This document shows, piece by piece, positions 14,001 to 64,000 of a stretch of DNA of 64,000 nt (the stretch's first letter is position 1; every line of letters begins with the position of its first letter). The stretch is from contig JYFJ02000031.1 of assembly GCA_000934665.2 (NCBI GenBank), forward strand, positions 62,001 to 126,000, in the 5' to 3' direction. The notes beneath the pieces were generated by a model, which was not told the DNA's origin, did not search any database, and saw only the letters and a program-made list of their open reading frames with translations. The stretch is from Catajapyx aquilonaris (Eukaryota). A program made the translations under genes and the position numbers.

Positions 14001-15331
14001 ACCTCCAGAGCGGGATAGGTATCGAGACTGGTGCAAAGCGGCCAGTTCAGACGCCGCCTCCACAGCCACCGTCTGCCCAGGGCAAATGCAATGGGGGAAA
14101 CCAAGCTCCCCCACCCCCTCCGCCACCGCCTCCCCCTCCACAACATCCCAGTAATGGAATGCATCACCATATGACCCATCACATGGCACAAAATCCATAC
14201 ATGGCTACTCCGCCTTTCCCGAAACCACCGTCACCTGGTGCCAATGCAAATGCACAAGCAGCATTTGTGCTGCTTTTGGCAGCCCAAATGCAAGCGGGAG
14301 GCATGGGGCACCACTCGGCTGCCCTTCTAAACAACCCGCAGGTGATGGCTACACTCCAGGGAATGGAGAGGCAACAGGGTCAAGTACAACCAATGGGACC
14401 TCCATCCCCAGGGGGGGCTAGGAATGGCTACAAGAATGGGTATCCAGATGCACGATCACCTGGGCCACCTAAGGTGAGAACAGAACTGGAAAACAATGCC
14501 TTGTGTTTCCGATGAAATTAGTGTAATCATTTCTGAATCCTTCAGATGCCACTACTACCCAATCCAAATGGGACTGAGGAGAATGCGGAGGCCAAGAGTG
14601 CTTTAGGCCACCTGGGAACAAGTCCGGAGCAACTGGCTCTTTGGGCTGCCTTGCTGGCCTCCCAGCAGGATAAAAAACCACCAGTGGCCACTGCGACTAA
14701 ACTGACTTCAAGCCCACCCCCAGCCCTCCAAGAGGCGTTGGACCGCCTTCTGGGAACCCTAGCGGCAGTTTCCAATCCTCAAGACCAACCATCAGTTGCC
14801 CCTCCGCCACCCCCGCCCCCACCGCCTCCTCCTCCTCCACCACCACCCCCGCCTCCACCAGCCATGGCCCTTGGGTTCCCAATGGCGGCCATGCACTCCC
14901 CACTGGCTGGCCTGATTCTCCAAGCGGTGAACCAGACCCCACCTCCGACCACGCAACATCCGGAGACCCCAACGAGCTCCCGGATAATGCGTGCCGTCCC
15001 TCCTCAATGGCCTGGATTATTTTTGTCCCCACCGTACGTGACGCCGGCAGCGAGAATGCAACCTCCGCCGCCTCCAGCCATGTTCCCACCTGGTTTCTGG
15101 AACCAGCCGAGCTTACTGGCAGCAGCCATGGCAGCTGCTGGTCAGTCCCCAACCCAAGGACAGATGATGGGTGCAGGGATGACCACCCCACCCATGGGAC
15201 AGAAGAGGAAGGTGAACCACATCCTGCCCAGTCCCGAGCCCAGCCCAGAAGGCGATTACATTGGGCAGCACTCACAAGGGATAGGGGGGCACTATGCCGA
15301 CTCCTACTTCAAGAAGAAGAAGAAGGCGTAG
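11010..15331 (+). CDS. RAVER: Ribonucleoprotein PTB-binding (RAVER1/2 family), 5' exon(s) not located
   Basis: GT-AG exons 11010-11132, 11194-11362, 11476-11723, 11796-11978, 13079-13169, 13959-14473, 14546-15331 splice in frame. They give tandem RRMs (LLCVARLP...[38 protein letters not shown]...HLRVSY), a Pro-rich middle and the RAVER C-terminal signature [32 protein letters not shown]. Confidence 0.93.
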
Positions 15332-32200: not shown

Positions 32201-35058
32201 TGTTCCACCTTCAGTTCGTCTGCTTCTTTGGGAGTGTTTTCTTTCTCTTTGGAAACAGCCTTCTTATCATGACTGTTTGTCTCATCTCCAAGATCTTTGT
32301 CTGAAAACTGTTTCGTCTCAGTCACATAGGCACTGCAATCTTGGACATCAGGCACAGAACTGTTTGTCACACATTGCACATCACCACTTGGCACCTGAGG
32401 AAGGCCTGATTCTTCTTCATCCGCGCCTTCCACCTCCACATCTCTCCTTTCTGAATTTTTGCATGCAGCTATGACCTGTTCGCTGTTCTTAATAGAGGCG
32501 ATAAGCTTTTTCAGACAACATTCCAAACTGTTGTCTTCCCTACCTCCCGGCTCTTCTTCTGCAGATCTTTCGGGCACATCTGGACATACTGCTCCAGAGC
32601 CCCCAATGCACTCGCACTCTTCAGGCGAACACGTGGCACCAAAATAAGACTCCAGCTCCCGAACAAGTTCATCAGCTGAGTCGTTCAACCTCTGCCTTTC
32701 TTCCGGAGAACGACCATGAAACGACAAATCTCTTTCGAAACTTTCGTCGACTTCATGCAAGGCAGGTAGGGGTAGACGCATCGAAGGCGTCCGTGACTTC
32801 AGAGACGCCTTTACATTCGCGGTGTTCTCATCATGAGTGCAGATCCTCAGCACCTCCGCCACAACATCACCTCCAGACGGTATTATTGGTCCATCTCCCA
32901 CCATTTCATCCGCATATCTCACGTCGCGTCCTTCTCCGCCGGTTGGTCCGGCATTGTCTCCAGATCCCAATGTCAACAGGTCCTCCGTTGATAACGGCGC
33001 GGGAATGTACGTGTCCAAAGAGGAGTCACCATCGGATGACAAATCATCGTGGGGGTCCATTTCTGTCCAGCCATCTTGAAAATTCCTCCCATTTTCGCCA
33101 TCGAGTAAGGACTCAGAACTTTCGGTGGTCCAGGTGGTAACGCTGATGTGCGACGACTCGCTGGAAGTGTTTGTGTCGCCCGAGGAGCTCTCCAGATCAG
33201 ACTCACTCTCACAACTCTCATCAGATTCGTCGTTTGGTACCCTCACTTCGCCTTCGCTGTACTCCGCACTGCTTGGCGATTTGTCAGGCGAAGGTGGTTC
33301 GCTAACGCCACTGTTATAATCACTGCCCATCTGGCTCGAATTAGACACTGAGGTATACTCCGACTCGGGAGTGACCGCATGATCCGAATCAGAAATGGTC
33401 ACGTATTCAGAATCGTTGTCTTCGACTTTCATTTTGATTGCGCCTTGGCTGTCACTTGGCTGGTCCTCCCAACTACAATCAAGGTCCTCTGACACATTTT
33501 CTTGGCCAGTTGAAGCAGAACCATTCGCATCCTTGGGATGTCTCGTTACAGGCTTGCCACTTGTCTCACCTGTCCGATAACATCTGAATTGACCTGTTAG
33601 ATGATCCAGTATCTCTTCACCATCCTGGATCAACCGAGTCGTACTCGGAACGTCATCGTCTTGGCTGATGGTCTCTGAATTATTGCCACATGTGTTACCA
33701 GTTGCGCCTTCACTTTCATTAGGTTGATCCTCCTGGTTCGGATCAAACGTTTTCGATTCAGTTTCCTGAACGACTGAAACTGCGCCATTTACGTCACTTA
33801 GGCCTTCGATGTCTTCACCATGTTGACCAGTCTGCTCATTCAAGTCAGGGAACTGCGTGCCAACATCCGCACTGACTGAAGAAGTTGCCAGAGTTTCACA
33901 GACTTCTTCTCCATGACCTGAACAACTTTCGACAGTCGTGGTTCCAACACCAGGAGGAAAAGGAAGAAGTAGCAAGTCTCTTAAGCCCACTGAACGATTT
34001 TCGGGGGTCATGTCTTCACCACGTAGCTCAGATTCTGTCTCTAAATGTGGAGTAAGATTTCTATGCCATGCTGGATCGCACAAAATTGGTGCATACTCAG
34101 TGGATGACACCTGTTCCAATTCAGGCAGTGGTGCATCATTTATCTCATCATTTACTTCTGGATAATAATCTTCACATACTATCCACCTATCACCATCTCC
34201 GGGAATACTTGGACGCGGATGCATGAGCATAGCTGAAGTCGCTGGTGTAACTACCTGCGCCATTCCATCCCCACAAACAATGCTTACCTCTTCTTCAGAA
34301 GGACTATCAGGAAGAATCACATGCATAGACTCATTGTGATACGGCAAAAGCAGTAAGTTCCTCAGGCCTACTGAACTATCTTCGGGAGTCGTGTCTTCAT
34401 CTACAAGGTCAGGCACTGAATCTGATGGCGAAAAATGTACAGCACGATGTCCATCCCTTTGATTGCAGAAAACGTGCACACACTCAGTGGATGAAACCTG
34501 TTCTACTCCAGGTAGGGATGGATGCCTTAGTTCAACATCCAACTCTCCTTCACTCTCTTTAGGAGGATATGGAAGCAACTTGCAAGGAACTGAATAAGGC
34601 TTTTCATCTCCTCCAACAGTCTCATTGCCTTCTTCAGGAGGATAAGGAAGGAGCACATCCGAAGAACCTACGTGATCAGGCAGAAACAACAGGTTCTCCA
34701 GGGCTTTTGAAAGATGTTCGGATGTCACACCACGATCAGTCGTTGATTCTGTCACGGAATGCAGAACACGCTCATTCTCATCCCGTTGATTGTCCACCAC
34801 CTCAGTAAGTATCTGTCCCTGCCCAACTGCTGAATTCATTATTTCATCAGGCTCTTCAGTCGACTGCTGAAAATCTTCAGCTCTACCTATCGTCTCAGGA
34901 GCTCTTGGACGCTGAAGGAAGGCTGCTGCTTCAGTCGACTGCCTAAAATCTTCAGGGTCCTGACTGGAAAGGTTCTCACCTGCAGCCTCTGGAAAATCTC
35001 TCTCCTCCTGCTGTATATCGCTGCTAACTTCAGGAGGATAGGGGAGCAGTGAATCCAT
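29239..35058 (-). CDS. DNAAF1: Dynein axonemal assembly factor 1 homolog (LRRC50/ODA7) with very long acidic N-terminal extension; start codon uncertain (35058 or further upstream within the ORF reaching 35214)
   Basis: A ~4-kb open exon ends at 31110 ([34 protein letters not shown]). Then exons 31044-30823 ([22 protein letters not shown]), 30763-30621, 30561-30463 ([10 protein letters not shown]), 30339-30275 ([14 protein letters not shown]), 30211-30126, 30064-29926, 29869-29350, 29295-29239. Confidence 0.88.
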
Positions 35059-35699
35059 AGCCTTTGGTATATCCTTGGCACGCCAGAACGCACATACACC
35101 TGCGCCCATTTCATGAAAATGTGTTACAGCGCGCTCCTGCATTTCAGAACACAAGGAGCAAATAAATCTAACGCGTCTGTGACTTGCAAAACATAAATCG
35201 CTATAGAAAACCAATTAACTACAGTAGCCTACAGGATACGGGAAAAGGGCACGCAAACAACCGGAAATTTACTAGTAGCTTGAGCATGCCAGACACTTTG
35301 TCACAAATGACTATTTCTTATGTAAACAAATTGTTGTGAATGAAATTAATGTGCGGTATTTGGCTCATTTCAATCTCGGTGTTAGGCTTCTTATAAATGT
35401 CATTTGTGTGTAGGAGTCAATTAATTGTTGTCGGCAATACATATCAACAATCTGTTTTAAATTTATTGCCGAGCAGAATGACGATCAGTTGTTGAAAATT
35501 ATTGTTCAAAACGGTTATACTTCCCATCAGCACAATGCTCCCCGTCAATTACTCTCATTGCCCAACAATTATTCGTAGCAATAACCAAACCGACACACAA
35601 CGTATGTACCACGCCCTAGTCCAGGCCCACCCCGAATTCAAGCAATCGACCATCCAAAACAAACATTCAAAAAAACACACACGGAAGCACAAAAAAGTT

Positions 35700-47018: not shown

Positions 47019-47282
47019 TCATTCCTTGTTGTTGTCAGCCTTACTCTCGGCCTTACTAGTGGTCTCCTTCCCTGATGAATTGCTGCCAGTTGATTCCTTC
47101 CTCTTTCTCTCAGTGTTCATCAACTTGGTGACTATCTTTCGGCTATGTCCACTCGGGTCGTGATGGTTGCTATGCTGGTCCACCTCCTTCTTGGACCTCA
47201 TCTTACCGCTATGTCCAGTAAAGATGTGCTTGTCATGGTCAAAATTGTAATGCTCGTACTCATCGAAATGGCTCTCAGACAT
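47019..47282 (-). CDS. NUPR1: Nuclear protein 1 (p8/NUPR1), intronless, 87 aa
   Basis: MSESHFDEYEHYNFDHDKHIFTGHSGKMRSKKE...NHHDPSGHSRKIVTKLMNTE is the arthropod-type p8 domain. The true ATG is at 47282, inside the longer track ORF. Confidence 0.92.
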   Translation of the reverse strand: MSESHFDEYEHYNFDHDKHIFTGHSGKMRSKKEVDQHSNHHDPSGHSRKIVTKLMNTERKRKESTGSNSSGKETTSKAESKADNNKE

Positions 47283-50200
47283 GGCTCCTTTTGTTGTCTC
47301 TCTCTGTAGACCTCTCTCTTGGCAATAAACTTGTTCCAGGTGCTGCTTCGGGCTTTTTAGACTCACTGTGTGAGGGGGCAGCTTGCCAGACCGTATGTGG
47401 CTAGCTGATATAGCGAGGTCGCTACATAGGCGGAGGGGATTCTGATTGGCCAGAGGCTTTTGTGGTGCAAGTGGGGGGCTACCATTGGACAGAAAAGTCA
47501 TGTGTAACCTTTACTGTGGGTGACGAAGGACAGTCCGCAGTAATGTACAGAGTTACGTCATGTTTAGATGGGGTTGACATTATTTTTATGATGAGCGGTT
47601 GCAATATTTGTCACGTGATGTCTGGATACAGCAGATGGCGTTGCTTGCTTATACGTGAGGCATATGTGACGATATACAGGTTATATCGTGTGTACGTAGT
47701 AGCACGTGTGCTATGATAGATTGGAGAGTTTGGAGACAAATGATTTCGGAGTATTGGCCGTCCTTAGCCCCGATGTGAAGTTGGGTGCAAACGTGCAAAG
47801 ACGTAATAAATTGAATGAAATTACCATACGCTAACTTTTTTCACGCCTCAAGTGAAGGTAGAATATTCTCTGCTAATTGTAACAATACATAAGTAATAAA
47901 TAAATAGTAATAATTCTTATTGTTGCTATATTACACTATTAAAAAGTTTGAGACGTCTAGGAGCGGAAAATATGGTAAACAGAACCAATATCTTCGACTC
48001 ACGATTTTTCTTCATATAGTTTGGTTTACCCCGTGCTGGACCATAAATATATTTATATAAATATCAGATATTTGAATTTGCCCATATTTTAATCTTTGGC
48101 TATGAGTCAGTTAACTTACATAGATATTAATATCCATGTGATTATTTATTGTCTGTTTACATTTTTTTTACGATTCATGCTTGGGACGTCAGAGGTCAAC
48201 AAGGTTTTTCCATTTTGCCCAATTAAATCCCTAATTAAATCGCATTTCTTGATATGTACAAGTAGAAGCACAGCCAATGGCATGAGTAAGTCTCCAATAG
48301 TCATACAGCATAATTATGCTCAATAACAATAAGCAACTTTGATCCAAAATATAGACTACTAATAATTTCAGCTGACGTTACAGGCAGCCAATTAATCTGA
48401 GACTCCAGGTCGGGAAGTGTGATAAACAAAACGACGTCACTGGAGCACCGTTTATTGCTGATTTTAATACCCTGACATATGGGTCAGAAAATCTCACCCC
48501 CAACTGCAATGCACCACACTATAAAATTAAGAAACTCTTCTGAACACCGGTATCATGAACCACTATTTCTCAAGCACCAGCATGACATCTCAGAAAAATG
48601 AAGAAGACGCGCAGTGCCCTCCAGAGAGTCGTGACCACGGGTCGTGACCCAACCCTAGCAGTACATTTTATCGGTCAAACTGTGCAATCTCACCCAGTCT
48701 CAGGCCTTGGCTACCTACAATGCACTGTCAGCAGGAAAATGCCAGAGCAAATAATATTTTTGCGAGAAAAAATTCCCTGAGCTGTGCAAACAATTTCTAC
48801 AGCGCCTCGCGGGGGCTATATAAGAAGGCGGTAAAACAATTTTGGGCACTATAAAAAAGTGCATAATGCGATCCTGAAGTGTAATGGCCGGCCACAGACT
48901 GAGGGGCTTCTTGCATGGCTGGAAGGCTGGAAAATTGGGACCACAACCGTGACCCATTTATAAATGAGCCACATGCACAGTATTATATCTTTGTGAATAT
49001 TTTGTGAGGCGCATATGTAACTAATAAATATAAAAATTTAACTAAGTCATTTTGCATACTAGTAATATACAGGTATAAAAGCTAGACCAAAACTAACCCA
49101 GAAATTAAAGGAAGTCTGCTTGAGTAAATAATAACTAATTACAAATATTTATATTCCTGGAATGTGGGGAATACATTATGTCTAATTTTAGGCGGAAACA
49201 TAATTTTAGTTGAAATTAAGCGGTTTCATGCCCAATGCGTTTGTGTTCTTTTGTTCAAACATTTATTACTGAACTGTGCACAAACACCTGATGTACGGCT
49301 AATTACCGCATCTATGGAATTATTGTGTACCAACTCACACATTGCCGACACGCACTAATGTTATGCCGAAGCATGACTCATGAATAATGTAGATATTGTA
49401 TATTTTGCACTCGCGTCATAACTTTTTTTTAAACACTTGCAGGATAGCATGCACTTTGGGCTTCATCGCATGCATTGCATACCATGGCGGTATTCAGCTT
49501 CGCATGTGATACGTAGATCATGTGCACGTTTTATGTGCCTAGTACATAGTGACGTAGCCCTGCCATAAAAGTATCAAAGGCATTAAAACATTTTAACGCT
49601 TCATGTCCGAGAGAATGACGTGCTAATAAATATCTGCGGCTGGTCATGCCGATAATAAACCTGCTGCGTGCGATTGGCATGTAGTACTCCACTATTGCAC
49701 CAACTTGCGCGTATGTATTCACACCATGTGTACTGTGTCATGTACTGTACTTCCCCGTACAACATTTGCAACATATTTCGCTAGAGCATGCAATTGCGGG
49801 AAATGCGGGCTGATCAGGAAATATGTCTCTAATCAGCTGCTCATAGTGGCATGCACAACAATGTTGCGAAACACTTCGTCAAAATGTGCAATATCTCTGA
49901 CAGGATTCATATACCTGTAGATAGAGACTTGATAAGCAACCTAGAATATACATTACGGTACATACAGACACAGGTCAAAAGCAAGCGCGTCTAGGCCTTC
50001 CCGGCCAAGAGAGAGCAGACATCTTATCATGTCTTTGGCACAAATAGTTCACAGTTTTAAGGTAAATAAATTCAGATATCGAGTCATACTAAAAATGCTG
50101 CTGAAAACGCACAGTCAGGCTCCTTTTTACCCGCCAAACTTTGTGTATCATAATAAATCGATTGCCTTCCCTGTAAATTCCTGAGGTCCCAAGGGGCATC

Positions 50201-51210
50201 CTACAAAAATATTTTCAACTGCCCACTGCATATGACCACAATAACGACGGGCATTGATTGTCGGAAACGGGAGGAAACCCACGTGAATACGGAGAGAACC
50301 ATCGCAACTAATTTCAGTTTGAGAAAAATCCTCCGTCCGATCCATGGACCGCGAACTCGTGACCTCCGAGGTGCGGCTTGTGGTCTTATCCCCCAAAAGT
50401 TTGAACAATGTTTTATTCGTACCGCGGTTTTAAAATCCCATGACGACACTACGTGCATACGTGCATCTGTACAGTACATTACACGTCATTCGTACAACAC
50501 AACCCAATTTTACCTTAGGCCATGCTTTTACTTTCTAGATCTGATCCACCGTGATCTGGTCTTTTGCGGCATATGCCAATAACAATACGCTCATATATCG
50601 CCAGCCGCGCCAGCAAATTGCGCTGAGTGTCTGACACATGGTATCGGTGCTCCCTGCCCTGGTGCACTTACTTCATAAATCAGTGTGGATACTGCCCTCC
50701 TTCATTTCCTGTCGATGGTCGTCACAAATTCCTCCCTGAAACTTCCCCAAAAAAGCACAAACACTTCACAGGTGACACAGGAGCACATCGCGCCAAGTAT
50801 CCGACATGTTTACAAGTTGCCAGATCAATTCGTCCGAAGACGTAACCTTCACCGGATCGAAACTAAATTAGTTAATGAATACACTTATGGAAGAATAAAT
50901 AAATACATTGTTAATTAAATTTTATTTATGCGCATACTATTATTTACACATATTTAGCTTGTCGTAGTTTAATTGCAATCTGGCTACCTGAAATCAAGAT
51001 GGCGGCTCACACGACGCAAAAAGCTACGCAAACAACGTGGTGAGATAATTGCAATCAGTTTTAACGAACTTAAATGTTCTGGATAGCGTGTACTAATTTA
51101 TATTATTGCAGGATTGGCTGGTGAACACCCCCATCTAGGTTTTGCAAGCTTGGGAACGTGTTCCATCGACTGCTACGGTATTAATGTATTGAGCGTATTA
51201 ATCCGTCATC

Positions 51211-53891
51211 ATGCAAGTGCTGGAGGCCAACAATGTGAAGATTTACAACCTGAGTTCAGGGAAGTCCCTCCCCGATTGGTTGTCTGACCGCAAGCGAAGG
51301 AAGCTCCAGCAGCAGGATGTGGACATACGGAGACGCATTGAGCTCATCCAGGACTTTGAGATGCCTGGGGTCAGCTCTTGCGTGCAGTGCACCCCAGACG
51401 GGCAGTACATAATCGCCACCGGGATCTACAAGCCCAGGGTTCGGTGCTACGATGTCAACAACCTGTCCATGAAGTTTGAGCGATGTGTTGACTCGGAAGT
51501 TATCACCTTCCACCTACTTTCTCAGGACTATTCAAAGATGGTCTTCTTGCAGAATGATCGGTAGGTCTTGGTTTGGTGTAGGTACGTAGCGAAGCAGACG
51601 TGCTTGAGACATGGTCACAACAACAGGGCATGACCCTGCCTCATTTGTGATCTAGTCAAGTGCATACGTCATGCCTCAAGCACATTGGCTCCTCACAATC
51701 AGTGGTAAAAGGCACTTGTTGTAGCCCAGTTTATACATAGTTTATACACTAAAATGATTGCTTAGAATCCAAACAAGGCAAAAAAATTTATAAATTAATG
51801 CCTAATGCTTTATCAATTTCTTCAACCAAAATGAAAAATTGTTAATTGAAAGATGGCTGAATCACTCACAGACACTGCCAGTTTCTATTGTACTACTGTC
51901 ACACGTACGATAAAGTGAAGATGATGGTGGCTGCTCATTTGTAATGTGCCATATGTTCACAAACCCTTTCATAACATTGCAGATATGTTGAGTTTCATAA
52001 CCAGAATGGCCGATATCATACCCTACGGATCCCGAAATTTGGGCGAGACATGGCCTACCACTCTGCCTCCTGTGACTTGTACCTGGTTGGTGCCAGTCCA
52101 GAGGCCTACAGACTCAACCTGGAGCGAGGGCAGTTCCTTTCACCGCTTCAGACAAGTGCTTCAGCACTGAACACCTGTGCTGTGAACCCTGCTCACCAAT
52201 TGTTCGTGTGTGGCACGGCTGAGGGCAAGATCGAAGCTTGGGATCCTCGGACTCATCGGAGGGCGGGTATCTTAGATTGTGTTGCTGGTGAACTTGCTGA
52301 TATGGTGGACATGACGGAGTTACCTTCTGTGACCTCAGTTGCATTTAAAGATGGACTAATCCTCGGGGTTGGAATGTCAACTGGACACACAATGCTGTAC
52401 GACATACGTGCATCATCACCTTTAATAATAAAGGACCACATGTATGGGCTGCCCATTAAGAACATGGCATTTCATCCCTCACAAAATCTGGTTCTGTCTA
52501 TGGATGCACGTGTTTTAAAGTTGTGGGATCAGAACACTGGAAAAGCATTCACGTCAATTGAATCCCAAAGTGACTTAAACCACTTATGTCAGGTTCCAGA
52601 TTCTGGACTCATTTTTATGGCCAACGAAGATCGCAAGATTTTGACTTATTACATCCCTTCTTTGGGTCCAGCCCCAAGGTGGTGCAGCTTTTTGGATAAC
52701 TTAACAGAAGAACTAGAGGAATCTCATATCGACACAGTTTATGATGATTACAAATTTGTCACTCGCCATGAACTCGATGAACTTGGACTTTCCCATCTGG
52801 TGGGAACTGAGTTGCTGCGTGCTTACATGCATGGCTTCTTCCTCGATATGCGCCTTTATCGAAAGGCTAAAGCCATAGCTGATCCGTTCGACTTTGAAGC
52901 CTACAAAAAGAAGAAGATTAAGGAGAGGATTGAAGGAGAGAGACGTGGACGCATTCGGAAGGTGGAGGTTGAGCTGCCCAAAGTTAACAAAGAACTGGCT
53001 CGAAATCTTATGGAGCGGGAACAGGAGGGAATAGGAAAGAAAAAGAAGGAAGCTGCACAGCTGCTTAAGGATGACCGATTCAAAGCAATGTTTGAGAACC
53101 CAGACTTTGAGGTGGATCAAAACACACCAGAGTACCGTTTGCTACATGCCGCCAATGAAGCGAAAGGGAAAAAGAAGGGAAAGAGGGTAGAGATTGTGGA
53201 AAAACAGCCAGTACGAGAGGAGGAAGAGGAAGTAGAAGGGAAGCCTAGCTCGGAAGAAGATGAGGAAGACTCCAGTTCGGATTATGACCAAGAAACAATG
53301 GAGGAAATAAAGAAGAAACGCAAGTTAATTCGAAAAGAAGGAAAGGCCAAATATAAGGAGCCGAAGTTGTATGAGCTGCATGAAAACCAGAGTCTGGTAA
53401 GAATTGCTCTTTGTATTTAATTGAAAATGTATGAAATTAACTGCTGTATTTTTCTTAAATGTATGTTGCTCGGAATTGAATTTTTTGAACCATTAATTAA
53501 TTAGACCTGGTTCTGACTACCGACATTTACTGTCGTAAAGAATAATTTAAAACCAGTTCTCAGTGATAAATTTGACCATCTGCAAAGTTTGGCCTTGAAC
53601 TGTTATTACTGTACTCACATTTCTTGGTTCCTCCTGTTATTTCAGGCATCCAGAAAGAAGAGTAAAGTGAGTTTAGGTGAGCGGCTGAAAGCAGAAGTAG
53701 GTGAAGCCAGTGATGTCATAGCATCGACATCTGGGGATCGCGAGATGACGTTTGAGTTGCAGAAGAAGGGAAGGAGTCGAGACCTGGAGGAAGCCGCCAG
53801 GCAGCATCGCCTGGAAAGGAAGAAGGTTCGACGTTCTGCTGGAGCACTTTTGGGAAGGCCCAAGACATTAAGAGGACGAAGAAGATTCTAG
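51211..53891 (+). CDS. NOL10: Nucleolar protein 10 (Enp2 homolog)
   Basis: Exons 51211-51560, 51983-53396, 53646-53891. Motifs NNVKIYNLSSGKSLPDWLSDRKRRKL, IELIQDFEMP, YYIPSLGPAPRWCSFLDNLTEELEE, LLRAYMHGFF, and NUC153-type DDRFKAMFENPDFEVD. Confidence 0.97.
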
Positions 53892-54337: not shown

Positions 54338-57300
54338 TCATAACGATGTGGTAATTCCCTTTCCGTTTTCTTCTGATAATGTCAGCTCAGTTATCAGAAG
54401 TGCTCGTTGCTTTTCTGTTTGTGGCGTCAAATTGGCTGTAAGACCCAGCTTTATTACCTGTTCAGAGAAATATAGGAACATATATTATGGTATGACTGTT
54501 TCATGAAGAGGAATGGGAGGAACATTTACCTCCCGCAAGCTTCCGGGTGTTGTGCAAATGTAGTATATGGCATATCCAGGTATCCACATCATGGACGTAG
54601 AACTGAGTAAGAATCCAAGCATTTCTCCCCACCAGGGATATTGGTAGTCTCGTCCGTAGCGAATGGGCTCGTATTTAACGAAGTAAAACAAGAAAATAAA
54701 CTGCAAAAAAATCATGAATCTTTCCACTGCCATGTAGCCAATGCCATGATCAAGTAGCCATGACGCGTCATTTCCATACCACCATAAATGCTGGAGCTGC
54801 AAACATCCAACAAAAAACGAGTAACTTTGGAGGCTTCTTCCCCAACATGCTTTCTATGCATTTAGAGAACTGTTTTGGTCCAAAAATCCACATGATTCCA
54901 ATGGTCTGGAAAAAGCAGGCCCACAGGAGTGACATCCCGCTTGCTCCGTAAAAATCAAAGAGTTGGAATATGTACACGCCACCCTGAAAGTAACGGCAAG
55001 TCACGCAATGTGTGCAACTACACATTATGCAGTCTAGAGTCTTACTTCTGTGACCATTGGCAGTGCAAGGAGCAACATGACGATGCACACTGCCAGAGTG
55101 AACTTTGGCCTGTGAGCCTGGAGCTTATCGGACCAGTTGTCCACCATACCTATCACGAAGGATTCCACCCCGCAAAACTGGCTGTCGATGCCCAGTGTCT
55201 ACGAGGAATAGCTCTTGGAACACAAAACAAATCATTTTGCAATCCCCAGCAGAGAGCCTTACCAGCAACATAAGAAAGAAGAGTGCGGCCCAAACCACGG
55301 CTCCAGGCAACTGCAACACCACTTCAGGGTAGACCAAAAAGGCCAATCCAGGTCCACTTGCAACCACATTGCCCACGCTTACTCCAGCCCGATGGGCCAT
55401 GTGACCCAAAACGCTGAAGGTCAGCAAGCTGGCCAGCAGCGAAGTCGTGGTGTTCACGCAGCACACAATAATGGAATCGCTGCGATAGGGAGACATTATT
55501 ACACGGGAATGTCCCAACATGTTTCCAACATTTCAGCTCGCAGGTTACACCCATCATTTGGTACAATTTAGTAAAGCCGCAGAGGGATAGCTGTAATCAT
55601 AGGCTGTAAAAGTTCATAAATATTGTTGCTTAAAATTGGCCTGGTATTTGGCAAAAAAAAGATAAATATATTATTATGTGATGTAAGCTCACAGTCTGAT
55701 TTTCCAAATGTATTCCAACTGTTTCAGTTAATTGTATGGGACTAATCTGCTTATTTTTCAGAAGTTCATTTTTTTATTTTTTTTTATTTTTACAACATTT
55801 TCAGCAGTTAAGAATATTAGCTAAAAGGTATATGAAATTGAACTTGCATCTTTTTACAGCACCGCACTATGCGTCTAGCATCCTAAGGTCAACCGTTAAC
55901 TACAGATGGATCCAAAAACTATTATTTACCGGAAACAATTGTGGTGAAACTTGTTGTATGATCCCAAAGCCAGCAGCGTCCCTATTCCAACTCCATATGA
56001 AAAAAATATCTGAGTCCCACCATCAACCCAAGGCTGAGCGGTCAACAAAATGCTCCAGTCCGGGGTCACCATAAATGCAAGCCCTGCAGAGACAAAAGCA
56101 GGTTAAACACATGTAGTTTACAATTCCCAGAAGCAGTGAAAGTGAGGAACATCTGAAGCCGTAAAATAATCAACTTTGCTTTCTGCATCTCATATCAGTC
56201 CTTTTTCTCCATAGAGACAATGTACTATACATTCCTAGATATTTTTTTAAAAGAAATTTGTACAAACTGCAACTGCGGAAGTTGTACACATTGAAACTGA
56301 TTAAGCAACACTGCGAAATATAAAGCCCAATAAAGCACTTACATGCTTTCTGATTCCACCAATTGTCGGCCCTTTTTGTGAGGCACATATACAATATCTA
56401 TAAGGAAATCAATGATCTTGAACTCCTCCAGTGTGAAATGGAATCGTTCATCCGAGTCCAAGTTACTCTCATTTCCACTTTTGTTTTTACCCTCACCATC
56501 GCCTCTCTCGATCGGCCCGATTTTGTAGACATGTCGGTATAAAAGAAAGCCGGATTCACTTTCCTCAGCAGAAGTACACATCAAGCAGATCGAGAAGGGC
56601 TACAGACTTTAATCTTCCAGACTACCATGAACAAGCTTGTGGTAAGTATGAGAAATCAACAAAAAAGCCTTATCTGCATTTACTTAATGGTTATTATGTT
56701 GGCAGATTTTTCTGGTGCTGACCACTGCTGTCGTGCTGCTCACTTTGGAGGTCAGTGCAGGAGGAGGTCACAAGAAGGGCAAGGTGGAGTACAAGTACAG
56801 CTTTGGCATCAAGGGAGAGGAGAAGTACCATACCAAGAAGGGCAAGGGTGACACCAAGGCATACGGATACGCACATGTCAAGGGAGAGGTACGGAGCATA
56901 TATGGTCGGTGACAATACAGTGAGCTAACATTTGCTTCTTTCAGCATAAACACGAGCATGTGGAACCAGTGATCGTGGAGATCAAGAAGAAACATCACGA
57001 CGATGATTAGTACCACAGCCAAGCTCTTCTAGTCTTTCCCTCCAATAAAAAATCGCTTATTTTTTATAATATATTCTGGTGCTAAATAAATATTATGCCA
57101 CCCTGTATGCAAGTGTTTCACTTTCGATACCACGACATACAATACTGTAGTAACATTCTCTTGAAAATTTAAACGACAAGCTACATGCAAGGTTACATGT
57201 GAACGAATTAAATTTAAATTGTAGCAAACTTATCAGAATATTACAGTCACCTTGATGAATGTTGGCCTACCTTCTTACAGGTGTCCCAATGACACACAAC

Positions 57301-60300
57301 AATGCCTGATGATGAATAGGTCTATTTTCAGTTATTATAAACGGGACATGTTACCACATTTTTAGCAGCATATGATTGGAGGCAACCACAATCAACAATA
57401 AACTGCACCAAATCAGAAACAATAACATTGGCGACAGAAATGTGAGCATTATTCAGGGTACACTGAATGACCTGGAACCTCCCACAGAGAGTACTGTTGT
57501 TTTCGTTCAAAACCATTCACAAAAGAAAGTGAAAGATTGAACTCCTTGAACCTATGGAGTAAAAGCAAAAGAGGTTTTGCTCGAAGAAAGTTGATCTGCA
57601 ATTACAGGCTGGACCTGCTAAGTCGCTAATACGCATTTACTGTGAACTGTCTGTCAAACTATATGATAGATACCAAAGAATGAGGCTACCAAAGGTCAGG
57701 CTTCTTTCCTGTCGTTGCCATGGCACGTTCTCTTTAGCGCATAATTTAATTTTTTTGTGCATATAGCGTGATGGATGCAGCCCTAGTAAGTGACCTGGGG
57801 GTTTGCCAATTCTTTGAGGAAGTTCGGATGATTAATTGATTGATGGGATGGGCGTGATCGGATCATAAGATATGCAAATCAATGTGTACATAAGGCAGGC
57901 CCATTGTGATTCAATTGTAGGTTCATGGTATAGGGAGTGTGAAGTAGTTGATTTACAAGTATAGGACTGGTCGTTATCCATGGTTATAAATTAAGCAGGT
58001 TAATCCAATTACGACCATTTATGCGAATTTATTGGAAGGCTGGTTTGCATGCAGCGTAAGAAAAAATGCACATGTTGATAAAGAAACTGCAGCAGTTACA
58101 GCAACTGTTACTGTCAGTGGATCTGATGAAAGTGCAGAACAATTTTATGCATTCTGAGAGTCATGATACGGAACACATGAGTCTATAAACTTTAACCAGA
58201 ATGATTCAATTATATTTCTATGACTTCAATATTTTATCCGATTTTATCCTGTCCAGTTAGCCTACACCATAACAACAGTATCAGCTAAGCTGATCATGAC
58301 TACACTACTGTACCAGTCGGACTCGGTCAAATAATATGCTTATTCTCTCCGTCGGATCTTTGCCCTACCTGATAATATCGCTTATGTCTCTCACCACCTG
58401 AGTGTGGCAGGAGTGTGCAGAGGAAGTGTGCACCATCTATACGTGACGAATAGTACTAAGTGGTAAATCGGAGGTGCATTTCATCAAAGTTGTTTGATTG
58501 TCACTGTCATACTGATCATGCCGAATTTTGGCTTATCAATATAAATCACCAATATCAAAAAATTCATACTCATCACCTCTTAAGAACTTTCCTGAGACAT
58601 TGTTCCTTATTGCAGGAAGTTACCCCTAGTTACGTAATCTTCACGTATTTTAGTCGGTTACGTCGTCTTATGGGGCCGTCACTATAGCAAAATGGTTTAG
58701 TGCACTAATAAAAGCCAGAATTTTTTGGGGTCCAAACTGCTGTGGAACCATGATGGGTGAAAGCTGTCCAGCCCCTCCCATCAGCCATCATCCCAAAAAT
58801 TCGCACCTTTTCTCCGGAAGTATTGTACACCAACAGCTTCTGGTGTACTGTCGATATACACCTCTCCCCTCTGACTATAAAAGCTTGTGGAGCTGAGGTT
58901 CCTGGCATCATCACCCTTTGGGACAGCTTGTCATCACAACCTCAACTGAAAGCTCCTCAACCACTGAAGACAATGAGCAAGCTTGTGGTAAGTTGCAGCA
59001 TCATTTTAATTGTTGGGCAGACATTGTTGTGATGCATTGTGTTGTAGATTGCACTTGCGGTTGTTTCGTTCGTGGCCGTTGTGTGGGCCAGTGGAGATCA
59101 CGAGGACAAGTACGACTACAAATGGGGCACAAAGATCTCGGGTCATTACCACGACAAGAAGCACAAGGGTCATGCTGAAGCGTACGGGAAGGTCCACGTC
59201 AAAGGAGAGGTAAGTTTGTCTTTGGGTCGTTGGTGTTGTACTACAACGTACGACAACGTTGGACACTCTCTGATTTTGTGAACTCTACAGGACAGTCACA
59301 AGAAGGCGGAACCGGTCATCGTCCACGTTGAGAAGAAGAAGAAGAAGCATCACCACGACGACGATGGAGGCGACGACGGTGGAGACGAAGGTGGCGACGA
59401 CGACGAGGGCGACGATTAGGCTTTCTGGCACCATGACAACGAGAGGTGAAGACGACGAAGGTGGCAACGACATCCAAACGGGGGACAAAATAATATTGCT
59501 CAAATATCATAACAATCGCAAATAAATGATCATGATTATGCATCCCCCTTCACCAAAACTTTGCCGTTTTCTTTCCTCCCGAACTATGCTTTCTGATATA
59601 CTGGAAATTGGTAGATGTGACACATACATCGGTCATAATAGAAGGGAAGCAAATTATCTGCGACGGTCACGCGCCTTTTCACAAAATGAAAGTGACCATT
59701 TGATCACTCTCGTACAACAATTTTGCAATGGAAACATATCCGTTACGTATATATAAGAAGCCAGGACAAGCACACCCTTAAAGTCATACAGACCACGACA
59801 CGACGATGGCAAAGACTGTGGTAGGTGTGTCACTTACTTAGTATATAGAGATACATGGTGATTGAGAAGATGTTACGAATTGTTCACTCCAGCAACTAAT
59901 TTTAAAAGATGCAACCAGTGACCTGATTACTGATTGAAACAGGTTGCTACGTTTACTTAATATTAGTCATAATATTAAGTTATATTTATTGTTTACCTGT
60001 TTGTTAAAATTGGCATGTTTATTTTTAGCAGTACTTTCAGTATTTAATTTCTATTAATTACGAAAGAGTGGAATGGCAATATGTTGTGGATTTAATTCAT
60101 ATTACCCATTCTCAATTCATGCAAAAGCTCAAAGTTGTGGTTAGTTATAACACTCAAGAAGTAAATAGAAATAACTTCAATATTTCAATTAATTATGCTC
60201 ATTTCGATCAGGTTATCTATGAGTTTAATTTCACTTAAATTGAGTTCATTTTAGGTAAAAAATTGATTGCTGGAGTGAACAATCCAATTTTCTTCTCCTA

Positions 60301-63300
60301 TATTATTGGGGACAGTCTAGTGATGACGATATTGTTACATTCCCAGATATATGTTATTCTCCTGGCTTCAGTAATCGTTTTGTGCAACTGCGGGTATCCT
60401 GGTGTCCACACCAGCAAAGTGAAGTACGAGTACTCATATGGCACCAAAGTGGAGGAGCAGCACCATGGGAAGCCGAAGGAGGGAGGGTACAGCTACACTC
60501 ATGTCAAAGGAAAGGTAATCAGAGTAACACACTGCTACGCCCTCATTAGCAACACCTCTCCAAATGCAAACGACACACTTATTTCCTGATTACCTGTAAT
60601 TTATGGCTAGCACTCTTGGTACTATCGGTTCTAGGGGGAAACCCGAAAAAAAAAAGTTGAGTCGAAGTAAATACAGTGATTAGTAAAATTACCGGTTATG
60701 ATAGCAAAGCACGGACGGATATTCCGGCTCATTAACGACAAGAAAAAGTTGAATAACTGGTTGGATATGGAGTGAAACCTTCATTCCCTAGCCCAAAAGA
60801 AGAAAATAACGTTACGATCCATTTTTCAGACCGAAGATCATTATGTGGAGCCTATCGTGATCACGCTTCATCAACCTCACCACCATCAACACTTCAGAGG
60901 TTACTGACACCTTCAATCGCTCCCACCTGTATGATATCAAGCAAATAAAACGTGTATATACCAAAGTGAAAACGTCTTTCTCTAAATGTACTCCAATCAC
61001 ACTCTAACTTAGACCTGGTTTCATGTTCCCCCAAAGGAAAATCATTGTGTTTGATTGCCTAGTGTGCATAATTAATTTTCCTTAATTTTCGTTCGTACAA
61101 CGGGCCCTTAGAATGTTCACAAATAAATTTAATGATATGAAATTATATTTCTTTATATCGTATTTTTTTAAACAGAGCAGACACTATGTTGTGCATCAAA
61201 TAGACTTTTTTTGAAACAAAACGACAATCGAAAAAACCCAAAAAAGGGCCCGCGATATCAACCTGAAGAACATAAATCACCAGGAGAAAAGGATAATTAA
61301 ATTATTTCAATAAAAAGTAGGCTACCGTACAAATATTCCAATTCTAAAAAATTATGCATAAAAATTTAAACTACACTTCAAAACATAATAATTCACTATG
61401 GTCCGGTTGCATAGCCTGTAGTAAAATATTCAGACTGGAAAGGAGCCAGAAGAGTTTGTTGAAGTTGTCAATAACGTTTCAATATTAATTACTGAAAACA
61501 ATTAATGTCAAACTCTCCTGGCTATTATCCAGCTCAAAATTTTACCACAGGTGCAACAGGGCCTTAAATCACTAAAAAATTCATGCATCTCATAATTAAC
61601 GAGCCATATCCTTTTGTTGATGTTAATATGAGATTTAATGTTTTCGTTTAAAAAAATTGAGACGATATTGAATTTCACTTCAATTCCAAAAAAAATTTGA
61701 GCGACATGGTACATAGTCATGATTCGTATTAGAGATGATTAGAGAGTTATTTACCACCATTAAAAAAATCTATAACGTGCACTGAGGTCACCCCCTATAA
61801 AACAAAGTGAAAACCCTTGGTTCATTTCTTCCTAACGAATCACCCCCATCCTTATGGGTCACTGGTGACCAATGTTCCTTTCGAGTACAACGACCAACCT
61901 CCTTGTGCTTGCAGCTAGGGAATGACCCGGATAATACTACGTTTTTATAAAGCACAAGTGGAGTAAAAAAGAAGCAAATTTCTTCTTTCTTCTTCTACAC
62001 CACAACCTCTCCCAGCCCAATTCCCAACTGGAGGTGCCGGCAGCCGTGAAAGGTTTCCTGCCCATCAACCTTTATCTCTATCAGAGAGAGAAACGGTGTG
62101 CTGCAACCCGTGCAAGAAAGGTGCAGGATATATAAGAAGCCGGTCAAACCACAATCAGCACACACTCAAGCTTCGACCACTCCCAAAGGCAGAAGACATC
62201 GACAATGGGCAAGTCTGTGGTGTTGCTGCTGTTGGCCAGTCTGGTCGCCTTGACCTTAGCTGGAGACCACGGAGGAGGAGACTCCAAGTTCGAGTACCAG
62301 TTTGGACACAAGGTGGAGGGACACTTTGAGGACAAGCATCATAAGGGGTATGCGTCTGGATACGGACACACGCACGTCAAAGGAGAGGTACGGATGCACA
62401 TTGTTCATGTATAATGTACCTGATGTTCGCACAGGTCTACTGGTTTTTCCCAAACGAGCTACGCATGTACCGTTGGTAGCCTGATTTTATTTCAAGGATA
62501 CTGGCACCTGTTGTATGGCCTTCACGACATACAATCTGGTTTAACAAAGAGTCAGTTCCTGGTAGTCAGATGGCTTCCGGAGCTCGTTCGTTTGGGTTCA
62601 CGTTTGGTCGATGTGGTTAGGATACACCAATCAACCAATAACTACAATTTCCAAAAGATTTGAGTGTGGACCCGGCTGTTTCTAATCTCAGTTTTGATTG
62701 TTTCAGTCGAGCCACGTGGCTGTTGAACCTGTGATTGTCCACGGCCATGACCATCACGGGGGTGGTGGAGGCAGTGGTGGTCATGGCGGTGGTGGCGGTG
62801 GTGGAGGCGGTCATGGTGGTGGCCATGGCGGCTGGGGGGTTTTTGACGGAGGCGACCATTACTGGTGAGCATACATGTTTAGTGGATATTCATGGATCAG
62901 GACAAGTATCGCCGCCTGGCGGAGCGTTTCACTTGCTTCATGTAAAGGAAAAGCTCCGCAAGGCGGCGATACTTGTGGGTATCCATGTATTTCCACCACT
63001 GCACTGTACAGGTTGGTTCAAACGGACGTGGTTGTGGTTGGGGATCAACCAATCAGCAATTTCGATCCGTGTGAACCCAATTAACACGTCAATTACATAA
63101 CATCCTAATTGTACATTTCAGAGTTCACCATCATTCGTAGAAGCTTCTAATCCAATTTTCTTCAAATGCCGCCAAAGAGTTGTACGTGTGGATGTGGTTA
63201 TTAATAAATGTTGATTTTTACACCTATTTTGTTGTTTGCTAACTTACCTTCAGATGCTCCCTCTAATGTTACACCTCTAATTAGCAGTATTACGATCGGG

Positions 63301-64000
63301 ACGTATGGGAATATCGCGCTGAACCAAATTATCTGTAAGAAATTACAAATTGTTAGGTACCTGCACTTGACAAAAAAAATGTAACTGCAATTTGGTGCTA
63401 AGTACTGAACCTTTGCGCTGTGATGAATTCCTTTCCAGACGACAAAATACACGATAATCCAAGCTAGGATCAAAAATCCAGCCAGATGCCATTGAACTTC
63501 GCCAATTTCAGTCAGTCCAGAAGACATTCCTAACACTCTTCGCCTGCGAAAAACACACGGTGTTATTAAACCACTTGTTGTGACAAGCATTGAATGGTTC
63601 AATGATAGATACTTGCTCCCAAAATTCTTCGATGGGCGACCTAAAGTCTGACGAAGTTCCATTTGCGTGTTCATTGTGCAGAAGAGTACTGTTGAAATCT
63701 TGGCATCTGGGTGTGTTCCACGTGTTGTCTGAAATAAATATGTATTATTGCTTAATTACTGTGGGTACTATTATAGTGCGCAACTTACTGCAATGAGCCC
63801 AAGGAAGGGCTGGCACGCGTGTAAAAGTACACATCAAGTAGTATAAAGTCCAGGCGACAATTACGATGTAATACACATCTTCTAGGAACACCATTGTTAA
63901 AGATGCGTATCCCACACCTGTAATATTCAACGCTGTTATTATTGTTGGTTTCTTTTTAGTGTTATTCGAAGCTTACCTTTGAGAATGGGGCAGAATTGCC
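54338..64000 (-). CDS. SLC6 sodium:neurotransmitter symporter (GABA/taurine/creatine-transporter-like), 5' part beyond window
   Basis: Exons >=64000-63977, 63917-63789, 63728-63617, 63543-63411, 63332-63248, 56083-55930, 55479-55263, 55198-55046, 54983-54780, 54700-54530, 54457-54338. Motifs CPILKGVGYA, LPWAHCNNTWNTPRC, EEFWERRVL, RGVTLEGA, WVDGGTQIFFSYG, ALGSYN, SGPGLAFLVYPE, LGIDSQFCGVE, GGVYIFQLFDFY. Confidence 0.95.
56538..56570 (+). promoter_or_regulatory. TATA box + Inr-like element of nested gene A
   Basis: TATAAAAG at 56538, followed ~28 nt later by TCAGCA; ATG at 56627. Confidence 0.7.
56627..57010 (+). CDS. Nested small secreted His/Lys-rich protein, paralog A (87 aa)
   Basis: Exons 56627-56641, 56706-56888, 56945-57010 (phase-0 GT-AG introns): MNKLVIFLVLTTAVVLLTLEVSAGGGHKKGKVEYKYSFGIKGEEKYHTKKGKGDTKAYGYAHVKGEHKHEHVEPVIVEIKKKHHDDD*; AATAAA at ~57044. 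Confidence 0.88.
58973..59419 (+). CDS. Nested small secreted protein with Lys/His and Asp/Gly tail, paralog B (101 aa)
   Basis: TATAAAAG at 58876; exons 58973-58987, 59048-59209, 59291-59419: MSKLVIALAVVSFVAVVWASGDHEDKYDYKWGTKISGHYHDKKHKGHAEAYGKVHVKGEDSHKKAEPVIVHVEKKKKKHHHDDDGGDDGGDEGGDDDEGDD*; AATAAA at 59521. Confidence 0.88.
59806..60907 (+). CDS. Nested small secreted His-rich protein, paralog C (86 aa)
   Basis: TATATAAG at ~59750; exons 59806-59820, 60347-60514, 60830-60907: MAKTVIYVILLASVIVLCNCGYPGVHTSKVKYEYSYGTKVEEQHHGKPKEGGYSYTHVKGKTEDHYVEPIVITLHQPHHHQHFRGY*; AATAAA at ~60944. Confidence 0.85.
62205..62868 (+). CDS. Nested small secreted Gly/His-rich protein, paralog D (~114 aa)
   Basis: TATATAAG at 62129, TCAGCA at 62155; exons 62205-62387 and 62707-62868: MGKSVVLLLLASLVALTLAGDHGGGDSKFEYQFGHKVEGHFEDKHHKGYASGYGHTHVKGESSHVAVEPVIVHGHDHH(G-rich with His)WGVFDGGDHYW*. 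The terminal TGA overlaps a possible gtgagc donor, so the extreme 3' end is uncertain. Confidence 0.85.
62882..62996. repeat. ~115-nt imperfect hairpin immediately 3' of paralog D
   Basis: gtggatattcatggat...acaagtatcgccgcctggcggagcgtttc pairs with gaaaagctccgcaaggcggcgatacttgt...atccatgtatttccac. Confidence 0.8.

Follow-up and report, generated by a model that had tools for sequence, protein, structure and literature searches.

Lineage-restricted families of low-complexity secreted proteins are commonplace in arthropods. A classic nested gene, the pupal cuticle protein gene of Drosophila, lies on the opposite strand of an intron of Gart. In Drosophila, genes nested in introns make up nearly 10% of the total according to one study (PMC3814207), and according to another, long introns are the typical insertion site of short young duplicates (PMC5174743). 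A characteristic trait reported for the genes of insect cuticle proteins is a phase-0 intron within the first few codons of the signal peptide; it falls between codons 4 and 5, and in Tenebrio either there or between codons 3 and 4 (PMC1626468). Among the 88 Drosophila genes reported in this peak of intron positions, 38 encode cuticle constituents and only 4 are otherwise annotated (PMC1626468). TcCP30 of Tribolium, in which 21% of the residues are His and 16% Gly, is described as a low-complexity cuticle protein of the non-R&R type that laccase 2 cross-links (PMC4440208). Cross-linking through histidine has also been reported for His-rich cuticular proteins (PMC8062583).

Here, we describe four genes (A-D) nested in one intron of an SLC6 gene, in a window of 64 kb (the whole stretch of DNA that was analysed). 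In a NOL10 tree, this window falls within Pancrustacea (SH-aLRT 98), but not among the pterygote insects. The explanation that we tentatively prefer, with slightly less than an even chance of being right, is that A-D are real, separately transcribed protein-coding genes forming a lineage-restricted family of secreted, Cys-free matrix proteins rich in His, Lys, Gly and Tyr, which arose by old tandem duplication within the SLC6 intron. The features of the locus are the following:

55932..56083, minus strand: host SLC6 exon downstream of the long intron (SNF positions 232-284, E 1.2e-17; borders placed by eye)
56084..63247, minus strand: long intron of the host SLC6 (SNF family) gene, 7164 nt, at SNF positions 231/232
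63248..63331, minus strand: host SLC6 exon upstream of the long intron (SNF positions 204-231, E 2.2e-07; borders placed by eye)
56538..57049, plus strand: gene A, 87 aa; exons 56627-56641, 56706-56888 and 56945-57010; TATA 56538, AATAAA 57044
58876..59526, plus strand: gene B, 101 aa; exons 58973-58987, 59048-59209 and 59291-59419; TATA 58876, AATAAA 59521
59748..60949, plus strand: gene C, 86 aa; exons 59806-59820, 60347-60514 and 60830-60907; TATA 59748, AATAAA 60944
62129..63208, plus strand: gene D, 114 aa; exons 62205-62387 and 62707-62868; TATA 62129, first AATAAA 63203
59879..60283, no strand: pair of 25-nt inverted repeats, 92% complementary and 355 nt apart, within intron 1 of gene C
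62882..62996, no strand: 49-nt inverted repeat, 84% complementary, with a 17-nt loop, 14 nt past the stop codon of gene D (presumed 3' UTR)

The host gene is identified by minus-strand ORF pieces that are collinear with the Pfam family SNF (PF00209). These pieces match SNF positions 80-124 and 153-218/204-231 before the long intron, and positions 232-284, 283-357, 357-407, 388-475 and 471-523 after it. Read directly from the minus strand, the long intron has a GT donor (63247-63246) and an AG acceptor (56085-56084). The original prediction had set this intron of 7164 nt against introns of 59-450 nt elsewhere in the gene, and the remaining gaps between SNF-matching pieces (at most about 440 nt) agree with this contrast. 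It had also placed the four genes antisense inside this single intron. Indeed, A-D are on the plus strand, opposite the SNF exons, and their spans from TATA box to AATAAA (56538-63208) all fall within 56084-63247. Like the nested genes of Drosophila, A-D are short whole genes on the opposite strand of one host intron and are functionally unrelated to their host. They differ in that a whole tandem family of four genes shares the intron, and in that the copies are old, as judged from saturated dS, rather than young.

The four paralogs are arranged head to tail, with 86-114 codons and intact frames in every copy, and all seven of their introns have GT-AG borders. Each of the four genes is interrupted by a phase-0 intron following HVKG[EK]. 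In A-C, a second phase-0 intron follows codon 5 (M-x-K-x-V), an addition to the gene structure given previously, while D has no intron in its signal peptide. This codon-5 intron is required because exon 2 contains no in-frame ATG ahead of the hydrophobic core. A plus-strand TATA box lies 56-97 nt 5' of the ATG in each gene, for a background of about 0.77 per kb per strand. The stop codon is followed by AATAAA after 33 nt (A), 101 nt (B) and 36 nt (C), the nearest AATAAA of gene D being 334 nt past the stop, at 63203. The features first noted for all copies (TATA box, signal-peptide-like start and phase-0 intron after HVKG[EK]) are thus present in four out of four, and A-C also have the AATAAA that had been attributed to them. 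We rejected a single large gene with four repeated modules, since every unit has a separate ATG, signal peptide, stop codon and TATA box, and A-C a separate poly(A) signal as well.

Intron 1 of gene C is 526 nt long, against 60-64 nt in A and B. The pair of inverted repeats that it contains resembles the insertion of a small transposon, and such a putative insertion would account for this length. At gathering thresholds, Rfam gave no match in the whole 64-kb window. Counts of kappaB, GATA, FTZ-F1 and EcR half-site motifs upstream of the genes were at background and do not discriminate between the functional readings considered below. No motif of the FTZ-F1 type, a moult regulator, was found in the upstream regions of A-D, which counts against a cuticular function.

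We compared the core exons by BLASTP with the complete set of six-frame ORFs in the window (2743). They match one another with E values from 1e-3 to 4e-13, the best unrelated ORF having an E value of 0.73, and within the window an HMM of the family finds just the four copies. Judging from these matches, the paralogy is not due to chance. In the six pairs, dS is saturated (1.1-2.2) and dN/dS ranges from 0.26 to 0.48. Similarity between copies is left only in the exon, start-codon and TATA segments, the introns and spacers being no longer alignable. The two-fold codons of A-D end more often in G/C (127) than in A/T (53). This ratio is 104:99 in NOL10 (p 1.6e-4 vs. A-D) and 51:53 in the host SLC6 gene (p 3.7e-4). 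The GC3 of A-D reaches 0.57-0.70 in an intron of 35-39% GC. Because similarity is limited to coding, start and TATA segments, dS is saturated, dN/dS is low and G/C-ending codons are enriched, we infer that A-D are old, selected coding genes. The gene models, the dN/dS values and the matches between core exons thus bear out the earlier description of four intact, co-oriented and old paralogs under purifying selection. That A-D are relics without expression, or functionless ORFs arisen by chance, is in our opinion very improbable: despite saturated synonymous divergence, all four copies have kept their frame, TATA box and start context and all seven splice-site pairs persist, dN/dS is well below 1, and the codon bias is opposite to the AT-rich surroundings.

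All queries for homology, family and structure were single exons of 53-61 residues. With E values up to 1, Pfam assigned no family to the four core exons or to the last exon of D. This includes PF00379 (Chitin_bind_4, the Rebers-Riddiford consensus of CPR proteins), and the lack of a chitin-binding or other cuticle domain at this threshold counts against cuticle proteins. The alignment of core exons was searched against 5.8 billion clustered proteins, and no homolog was found either among 24 candidates of 29-107 aa or, with E values up to 10, among 5821 candidates of 108-2000 aa. A profile search of 1.84 billion representative proteins gave 0 matches at E values up to 0.001. In the PDB, the profile search (E up to 10) returned only ASH2 SPRY chains with E values of 0.21-1, which we took as chance matches. 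A scan of metagenome contigs yielded 290 pattern-matching stretches, none of them confirmed by tblastn, and a full-text search of the literature for short motifs of the family retrieved nothing related. For exon 1 of D, the nearest clusters in the ESM Atlas score 0.78-0.82, below the 0.9 line and at a level that shuffled sequences reach one third of the time. All these clusters are arthropod, with His-rich and pupal-cuticle-like proteins among them, and we consider them a weak lead only toward cuticle. Nothing usable was obtained with the mature part of exon 2 of A, and Pfam gave no match to the cuticle-associated families to which the Atlas pointed (Retinin_C, PF04527, and DUF4779, PF16009, with feature scores of only 0.78).

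With these single-exon queries, blank results in Pfam, the PDB, the protein sets and the metagenome contigs agree with the earlier statement that A-D cannot be assigned to a known family. The same results argue against a characterised family that the searches would have missed, which we regard as improbable. Such a miss would nevertheless be favoured by the limitation of the queries to single exons and by the length of the profile: with 59 positions, we estimate that about 40 bits or more would be needed to reach an E value of 0.001 in 1.84 billion proteins. Moreover, the closest NOL10 in the libraries is only 55-63% identical, so close relatives of the species are absent there.

The predicted proteins share one layout, a signal-peptide-like N-terminus followed by a Cys-free and very hydrophilic mature part of about 60-95 residues. 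In the N-termini, Lys occupies position 3, and residues 4-16 include a hydrophobic stretch of 12 residues whose mean Kyte-Doolittle value is 3.0-3.2. Small residues then precede a conserved G-x-H, whose G and H are invariant in the four copies, right after the hydrophobic region. The core of about 50 residues, in which aromatic or aliphatic positions alternate with charged ones, contains in order Y-x-[YFW]-G-x-K, Y-x-x-x-HVKG[EK], EP[VI][IV]V and a His cluster. AlphaFold models the core exon with low confidence (mean pLDDT 61.9) and places a single hairpin at 36-42/47-53. After the core comes a low-complexity tail that differs in each copy. The mature protein of A is Lys-rich and basic (pI 9.25), with a short basic/acidic tail. 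B (Asp 20%; pI 5.7) has a poly-Lys tail that becomes acidic and Asp/Gly-rich, C is Tyr/His-rich with a His/Gln tail, and D (Gly 36%; pI 6.2) has a Gly/His-rich tail. Overall, the mature parts contain no Cys, 13-17% His, up to 24% Lys and up to 36% Gly (11-16% in A-C), with GRAVY values from -0.97 to -1.90, and Arg is absent from the translations of A, B and D. A neuropeptide precursor was rejected, since dibasic sites with Arg are absent and conservation extends over a block of 50 residues.

The closest analogy for A-D is with histidine-rich cuticular proteins of the non-R&R type that are cross-linked via histidine. Like TcCP30 and CPH proteins as described in the sources cited above, they combine a signal-peptide-like start, i.e. 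a predicted secretion signal, with a Cys-free, polar and His/Gly-rich mature sequence that has no chitin-binding consensus, and acidic to basic variants occur in one genome. A-C have an intron inside the region coding for the putative signal peptide, close to where typical insect cuticle genes have theirs (PMC1626468). This intron lies between codons 5 and 6, one codon downstream of the published position, and D has none. In addition, A-D are half the size of TcCP30 (60-95 mature residues against about 150), use Lys and not Arg, and have a conserved, structured-looking core rather than pure low complexity. No sequence similarity between A-D and TcCP30 or CPH proteins was found, the likeness to these proteins as they are described being one of composition and gene layout, and the host is not an insect according to the NOL10 tree. 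Among the candidate roles suggested earlier (hardening of cuticle or mouthparts, adhesive or silk-like secretion, metal-binding immune peptides), circumstantial evidence (arthropod host, intron within the signal peptide, His content) nonetheless leans toward cuticle or matrix.

Composition alone suits antimicrobial or adhesive proteins equally well. The main rival explanation is that A-D are host-defence or metal-handling peptides of haemolymph or epithelia, either antimicrobial or sequestering Zn, Cu or Ni. A tandem, TATA-bearing cluster encoding small, charged, Cys-free proteins with a predicted signal peptide would be consistent with defence, as would the Gly/His tail of D. The invariant G-x-H beside the cleavage region could also form an ATCUN-type amino-terminal Cu/Ni site, although by the -3/-1 rule, applied by hand, X-X-His would be at the mature N-terminus only in D and possibly in A. 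Linear glycine-rich antimicrobial families are known in crustaceans, e.g. the armadillidins (PMC5031766, PMC7017220). Compared with the descriptions in these sources, A-D are likewise small, predicted to be secreted, Cys-free and lineage-restricted, and Gly-rich sequence with interspersed His is found in the tail of D. In contrast, A-C are not Gly-rich (11-16%), the four proteins share a core that is not based on Gly, and two members, B and D, are acidic to neutral and not cationic; composition and pI thus differ from the Gly-rich repeated motif and cationic peptide of armadillidins. Moreover, kappaB-like motifs are not enriched within 500 nt upstream (0-1 matches vs. 0.2-0.4 expected). A conserved core of 50 residues with strand-like alternation is also unusual for linear antimicrobial peptides, and we consider a defence function unlikely.

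A-D might also contribute to a secreted product such as an adhesive, cement, silk, eggshell or gland secretion, in which oppositely charged Lys-rich and Asp-rich members, rich in Tyr and His, would assemble outside the body. Richness in Lys, Gly, Tyr and His recalls the adhesive proteins of mussels and tube worms, the family includes both a strongly basic member (A, pI 9.25) and one with a poly-acidic tail (B), and the codon bias suggests high expression. However, the repeat architecture typical of such proteins is absent, A-D are very short, and single exons retrieved no homolog in the protein sets searched. We find this reading still less likely than defence.

If A-D are matrix proteins, as we prefer, epidermal or gland cells would secrete them into an extracellular matrix, most likely the cuticle. 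The core, predicted to form short beta-strands, would pack on other matrix components. The abundant His residues, along with Lys and Tyr, would react as nucleophiles in quinone cross-linking or coordinate metals as ligands, and the divergent tails would set the charge and possibly bind mineral or metal. A bolder and rather improbable extension is that the Tyr/His/Lys core of about 50 residues constitutes an undescribed extracellular binding module of a crustacean/basal-hexapod lineage. Its tails (poly-Asp/Gly, Gly/His and His/Gln) would target calcium mineral or transition-metal/quinone cross-links as a hardening toolkit, and antisense nesting would tie the transcriptional bursts of A-D to repression of the SLC6 host gene.

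A-D match no known family in our searches, while nesting and this kind of protein are both common in arthropods, and the family opens no new class of biology. The locus is a clean case of an old tandem family kept in a single intron, useful for the study of transcriptional interference between nested and host genes. If expressed, A-D would add to the secreted repertoire of a poorly sampled pancrustacean lineage a family that homology-based annotation cannot detect. With one conserved core and four different tails, they would then provide a natural series for the tuning of His-rich matrices by cross-linking and by metal or mineral binding.

The nested genes lie in a minus-strand SLC6 transporter gene; between 54485 and 63972, its ORF pieces follow the Pfam SNF (SLC6) profile in collinear order. 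The match to profile positions 204-231 stops at 63248 and the match to positions 232-284 sets in at 56083, which places a host intron of 7164 nt exactly where the original prediction had it; the remaining gaps between SNF-matching pieces are all about 440 nt or less. Plus-strand ORFs within this intron were spliced at canonical sites, giving four complete reading frames, genes A to D:

56084-63247, minus: host SLC6 intron; donor GT 63247-63246, acceptor AG 56085-56084, read from the sequence
56627-56641, 56706-56888 and 56945-57010, plus: exons of gene A (87 aa)
58973-58987, 59048-59209 and 59291-59419, plus: exons of gene B (101 aa)
59806-59820, 60347-60514 and 60830-60907, plus: exons of gene C (86 aa)
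62205-62387 and 62707-62868, plus: exons of gene D (114 aa)
59879-59903 and 60259-60283: inverted-repeat pair in intron 1 of C, 25 nt each, 92% complementary, 355 nt apart
62882-62996: inverted repeat of 49 nt, 84% complementary, with a 17-nt loop, starting 14 nt past the D stop

All seven introns of these genes have GT-AG borders. As had been proposed, a phase-0 intron follows HVKG[EK] in each of the four genes. Genes A, B and C have a further phase-0 intron, absent from the original prediction, following codon 5 (M-x-K-x-V). The resulting 15-nt first coding exon is required because exon 2 has no in-frame ATG before the hydrophobic core; in a repeat search, its DNA was 92% identical between A and B and 71% between A and C. 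Gene D encodes the same N-terminus without this signal-peptide intron. In A and B, intron 1 is 60-64 nt long; in C it has 526 nt, and the inverted repeats inside it are probably a small or miniature transposon insertion that enlarged it.

The four-gene family is real and old. In a BLASTP search against the complete set of 2743 six-frame ORFs from the window, the core exons matched each other in 12 of 12 directed pairs (E 1e-3 to 4e-13), while the best unrelated ORF reached E 0.73. A family HMM recovered only the four copies within the window (next match E 0.25). Of the 65 columns of the core alignment, 12 are invariant; these include the HVKG block and a G-x-H that immediately follows the hydrophobic region. 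The last exons have E-P and a His cluster in common. The claim of four intact, co-oriented paralogs is upheld by complete frames and mutual core-exon matches. That the cluster is old and selected was likewise supported by Nei-Gojobori estimates for all six pairs, with saturated dS (1.1-2.2), dN of 0.41-0.66 and dN/dS of 0.26-0.48. In the repeat search, the copies resembled each other only at the exon with the start codon, at the donor junction of HVKG and, for C and D, around the TATA box; introns and spacers showed no similarity.

Codon usage also sets these genes apart. Their two-fold degenerate codons end in G/C 127 times and in A/T 53 times; the corresponding counts are 104:99 for NOL10 (Fisher p 1.6e-4) and 51:53 for the host SLC6 gene (Fisher p 3.7e-4). 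Their GC3 is 0.57-0.70 versus 35-39% GC in the surrounding intron. Every ATG has A at position -3, and the predicted TATA box was found on the plus strand 56-97 nt upstream of all four. By our own estimate, chance is very unlikely to have placed all four boxes in this way, given a background of about 0.77 sites per kb per strand. The sequence directly after the TATA box is common to A, C and D. The AATAAA signals announced for A, B and C lie 33, 101 and 36 nt past the stop, respectively. As the first one of D comes only at 63203 (334 nt past the stop, beyond the 49-nt inverted repeat), this hairpin may form part of the D 3' UTR, which may stop about 40 nt short of the host SLC6 exon.

Genes are densely packed in the window, which is part of a eukaryotic genome, and other genes and frames were recorded in it:

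11367-11795 and 13949-15331, plus: long Pro-rich open frames (uninterrupted Pro runs of about 25 residues) downstream of an exon with an RRM; probably all parts of one gene for an RNA-binding protein whose C-terminal half is proline-rich
19780-20967, minus: TPR-repeat exons (TPR match tested), then a Gly/Leu-rich and Gly/Ala-rich stretch; resembling a small glutamine-rich TPR co-chaperone
29326-29886, minus: open frame of 186 codons without match
31045-35214, minus: one open frame, 1389 codons long, acidic and rich in Ser, Glu and Asp, without Pfam match
47019-47510, minus: ORF with a strong Pfam Phospho_p8 match (DNA-binding nuclear phosphoprotein p8 / NUPR1-like; E 3e-27)
51202-53891, plus: NOL10 (nucleolar protein 10) gene, with Pfam Beta-prop_NOL10_N, NOL10_2nd and NUC153 and one very long exon (481 codons)

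NOL10, which is convergent with the host SLC6 gene and downstream of it, was used to place the lineage. A quick maximum-likelihood tree combined the window NOL10 with 34 of 120 listed NOL10 hits, picked to span phyla and to include the top unnamed hits. The window fell inside the Pancrustacea clade (SH-aLRT 98), outside pterygote insects, adjoining Orchesella and Artemia (SH-aLRT 91). This single-gene placement on a long branch suggests an arthropod host, probably a crustacean or a basal hexapod.

Relatives of the family were then sought with single exons of 53-61 residues. These queries matched no Pfam family, gave only chance matches among PDB sequences (E 0.2 or worse), and retrieved no relative from a 5.8-billion clustered protein set (near and longer lengths), from 1.84 billion representatives scored by HMMER or from JGI metagenome contigs. 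Among 2736 hits, the best NOL10 matches were only 55-63% identical to the window NOL10, so the species and its close relatives are absent from the searched libraries and the lineage is poorly represented there. ESM Atlas neighbours were sub-threshold (0.78-0.82) and all belonged to arthropod clusters, including His-rich and pupal-cuticle-like ones; a second Atlas query gave no match. The family, which the original prediction could not assign either, matches no described one as far as exon-level searches can see.

The expected signal-peptide character was supported by hand assessment: in all four N-termini, residue 3 is Lys, a stretch of 12 residues averages 3.0-3.2 on the Kyte-Doolittle hydropathy scale, and small residues precede the conserved G-x-H. 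Cleavage was placed by hand near residues 19-24. The predicted mature parts (63-94 residues) are Cys-free and contain 13-17% His. Lys accounts for 24% of A and 19% of B, Asp for 20% of B and Gly for 36% of D, and the pI is 9.25, 5.70, 8.19 and 6.21 in A to D, respectively. AlphaFold2 on the core-exon alignment gave a low-confidence model (mean pLDDT 61.9) with the signal-peptide helix and one hairpin (residues 36-42 and 47-53).

Composition alone suits defence peptides or adhesives equally well, and two results speak against cuticle: single-exon queries matched no cuticle domain in Pfam, and no moult-regulator motif stands out upstream of A-D. The favoured prediction is nevertheless a secreted matrix protein, most likely cuticular, in which His, together with Lys and Tyr, would serve for cross-linking or metal coordination, because the NOL10 tree makes the host an arthropod and because A-C carry a phase-0 signal-peptide intron. 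An intron of this kind, placed a few codons inside the signal peptide, is described as a recognised hallmark of insect cuticle protein genes; the 88 Drosophila genes in the intron-position peak comprise 38 cuticle constituents, 46 unannotated genes and 4 of other function (PMC1626468). The intron of A-C lies one codon further downstream than the position given there. This reading also rests on known His-rich, non-R&R low-complexity cuticle proteins cross-linked by laccase 2 through histidine, such as TcCP30, reported with 21% His and 16% Gly (PMC4440208); lepidopteran scale proteins are reported with 6-45% His (PMC8062583). Promoters with a TATA box, a tandem arrangement and biased codon usage would fit abundant, stage-regulated structural genes. 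More speculatively, a calcifying crustacean could use the acidic Asp/Gly tail that B carries to bind calcium or mineral.

It is common in arthropods for a short gene to sit in a long intron, mostly antisense to its host; the classic case is the opposite-strand cuticle gene in the Gart intron. Nearly 10% of Drosophila genes are reported as nested (PMC3814207), and long introns as the typical insertion place of short duplicates (PMC5174743). Compared with known nested genes, the present case is slightly unusual in that a whole four-gene family, old by its saturated dS, has been kept in one intron. By sequence its proteins form a new family, and they are of a familiar type.
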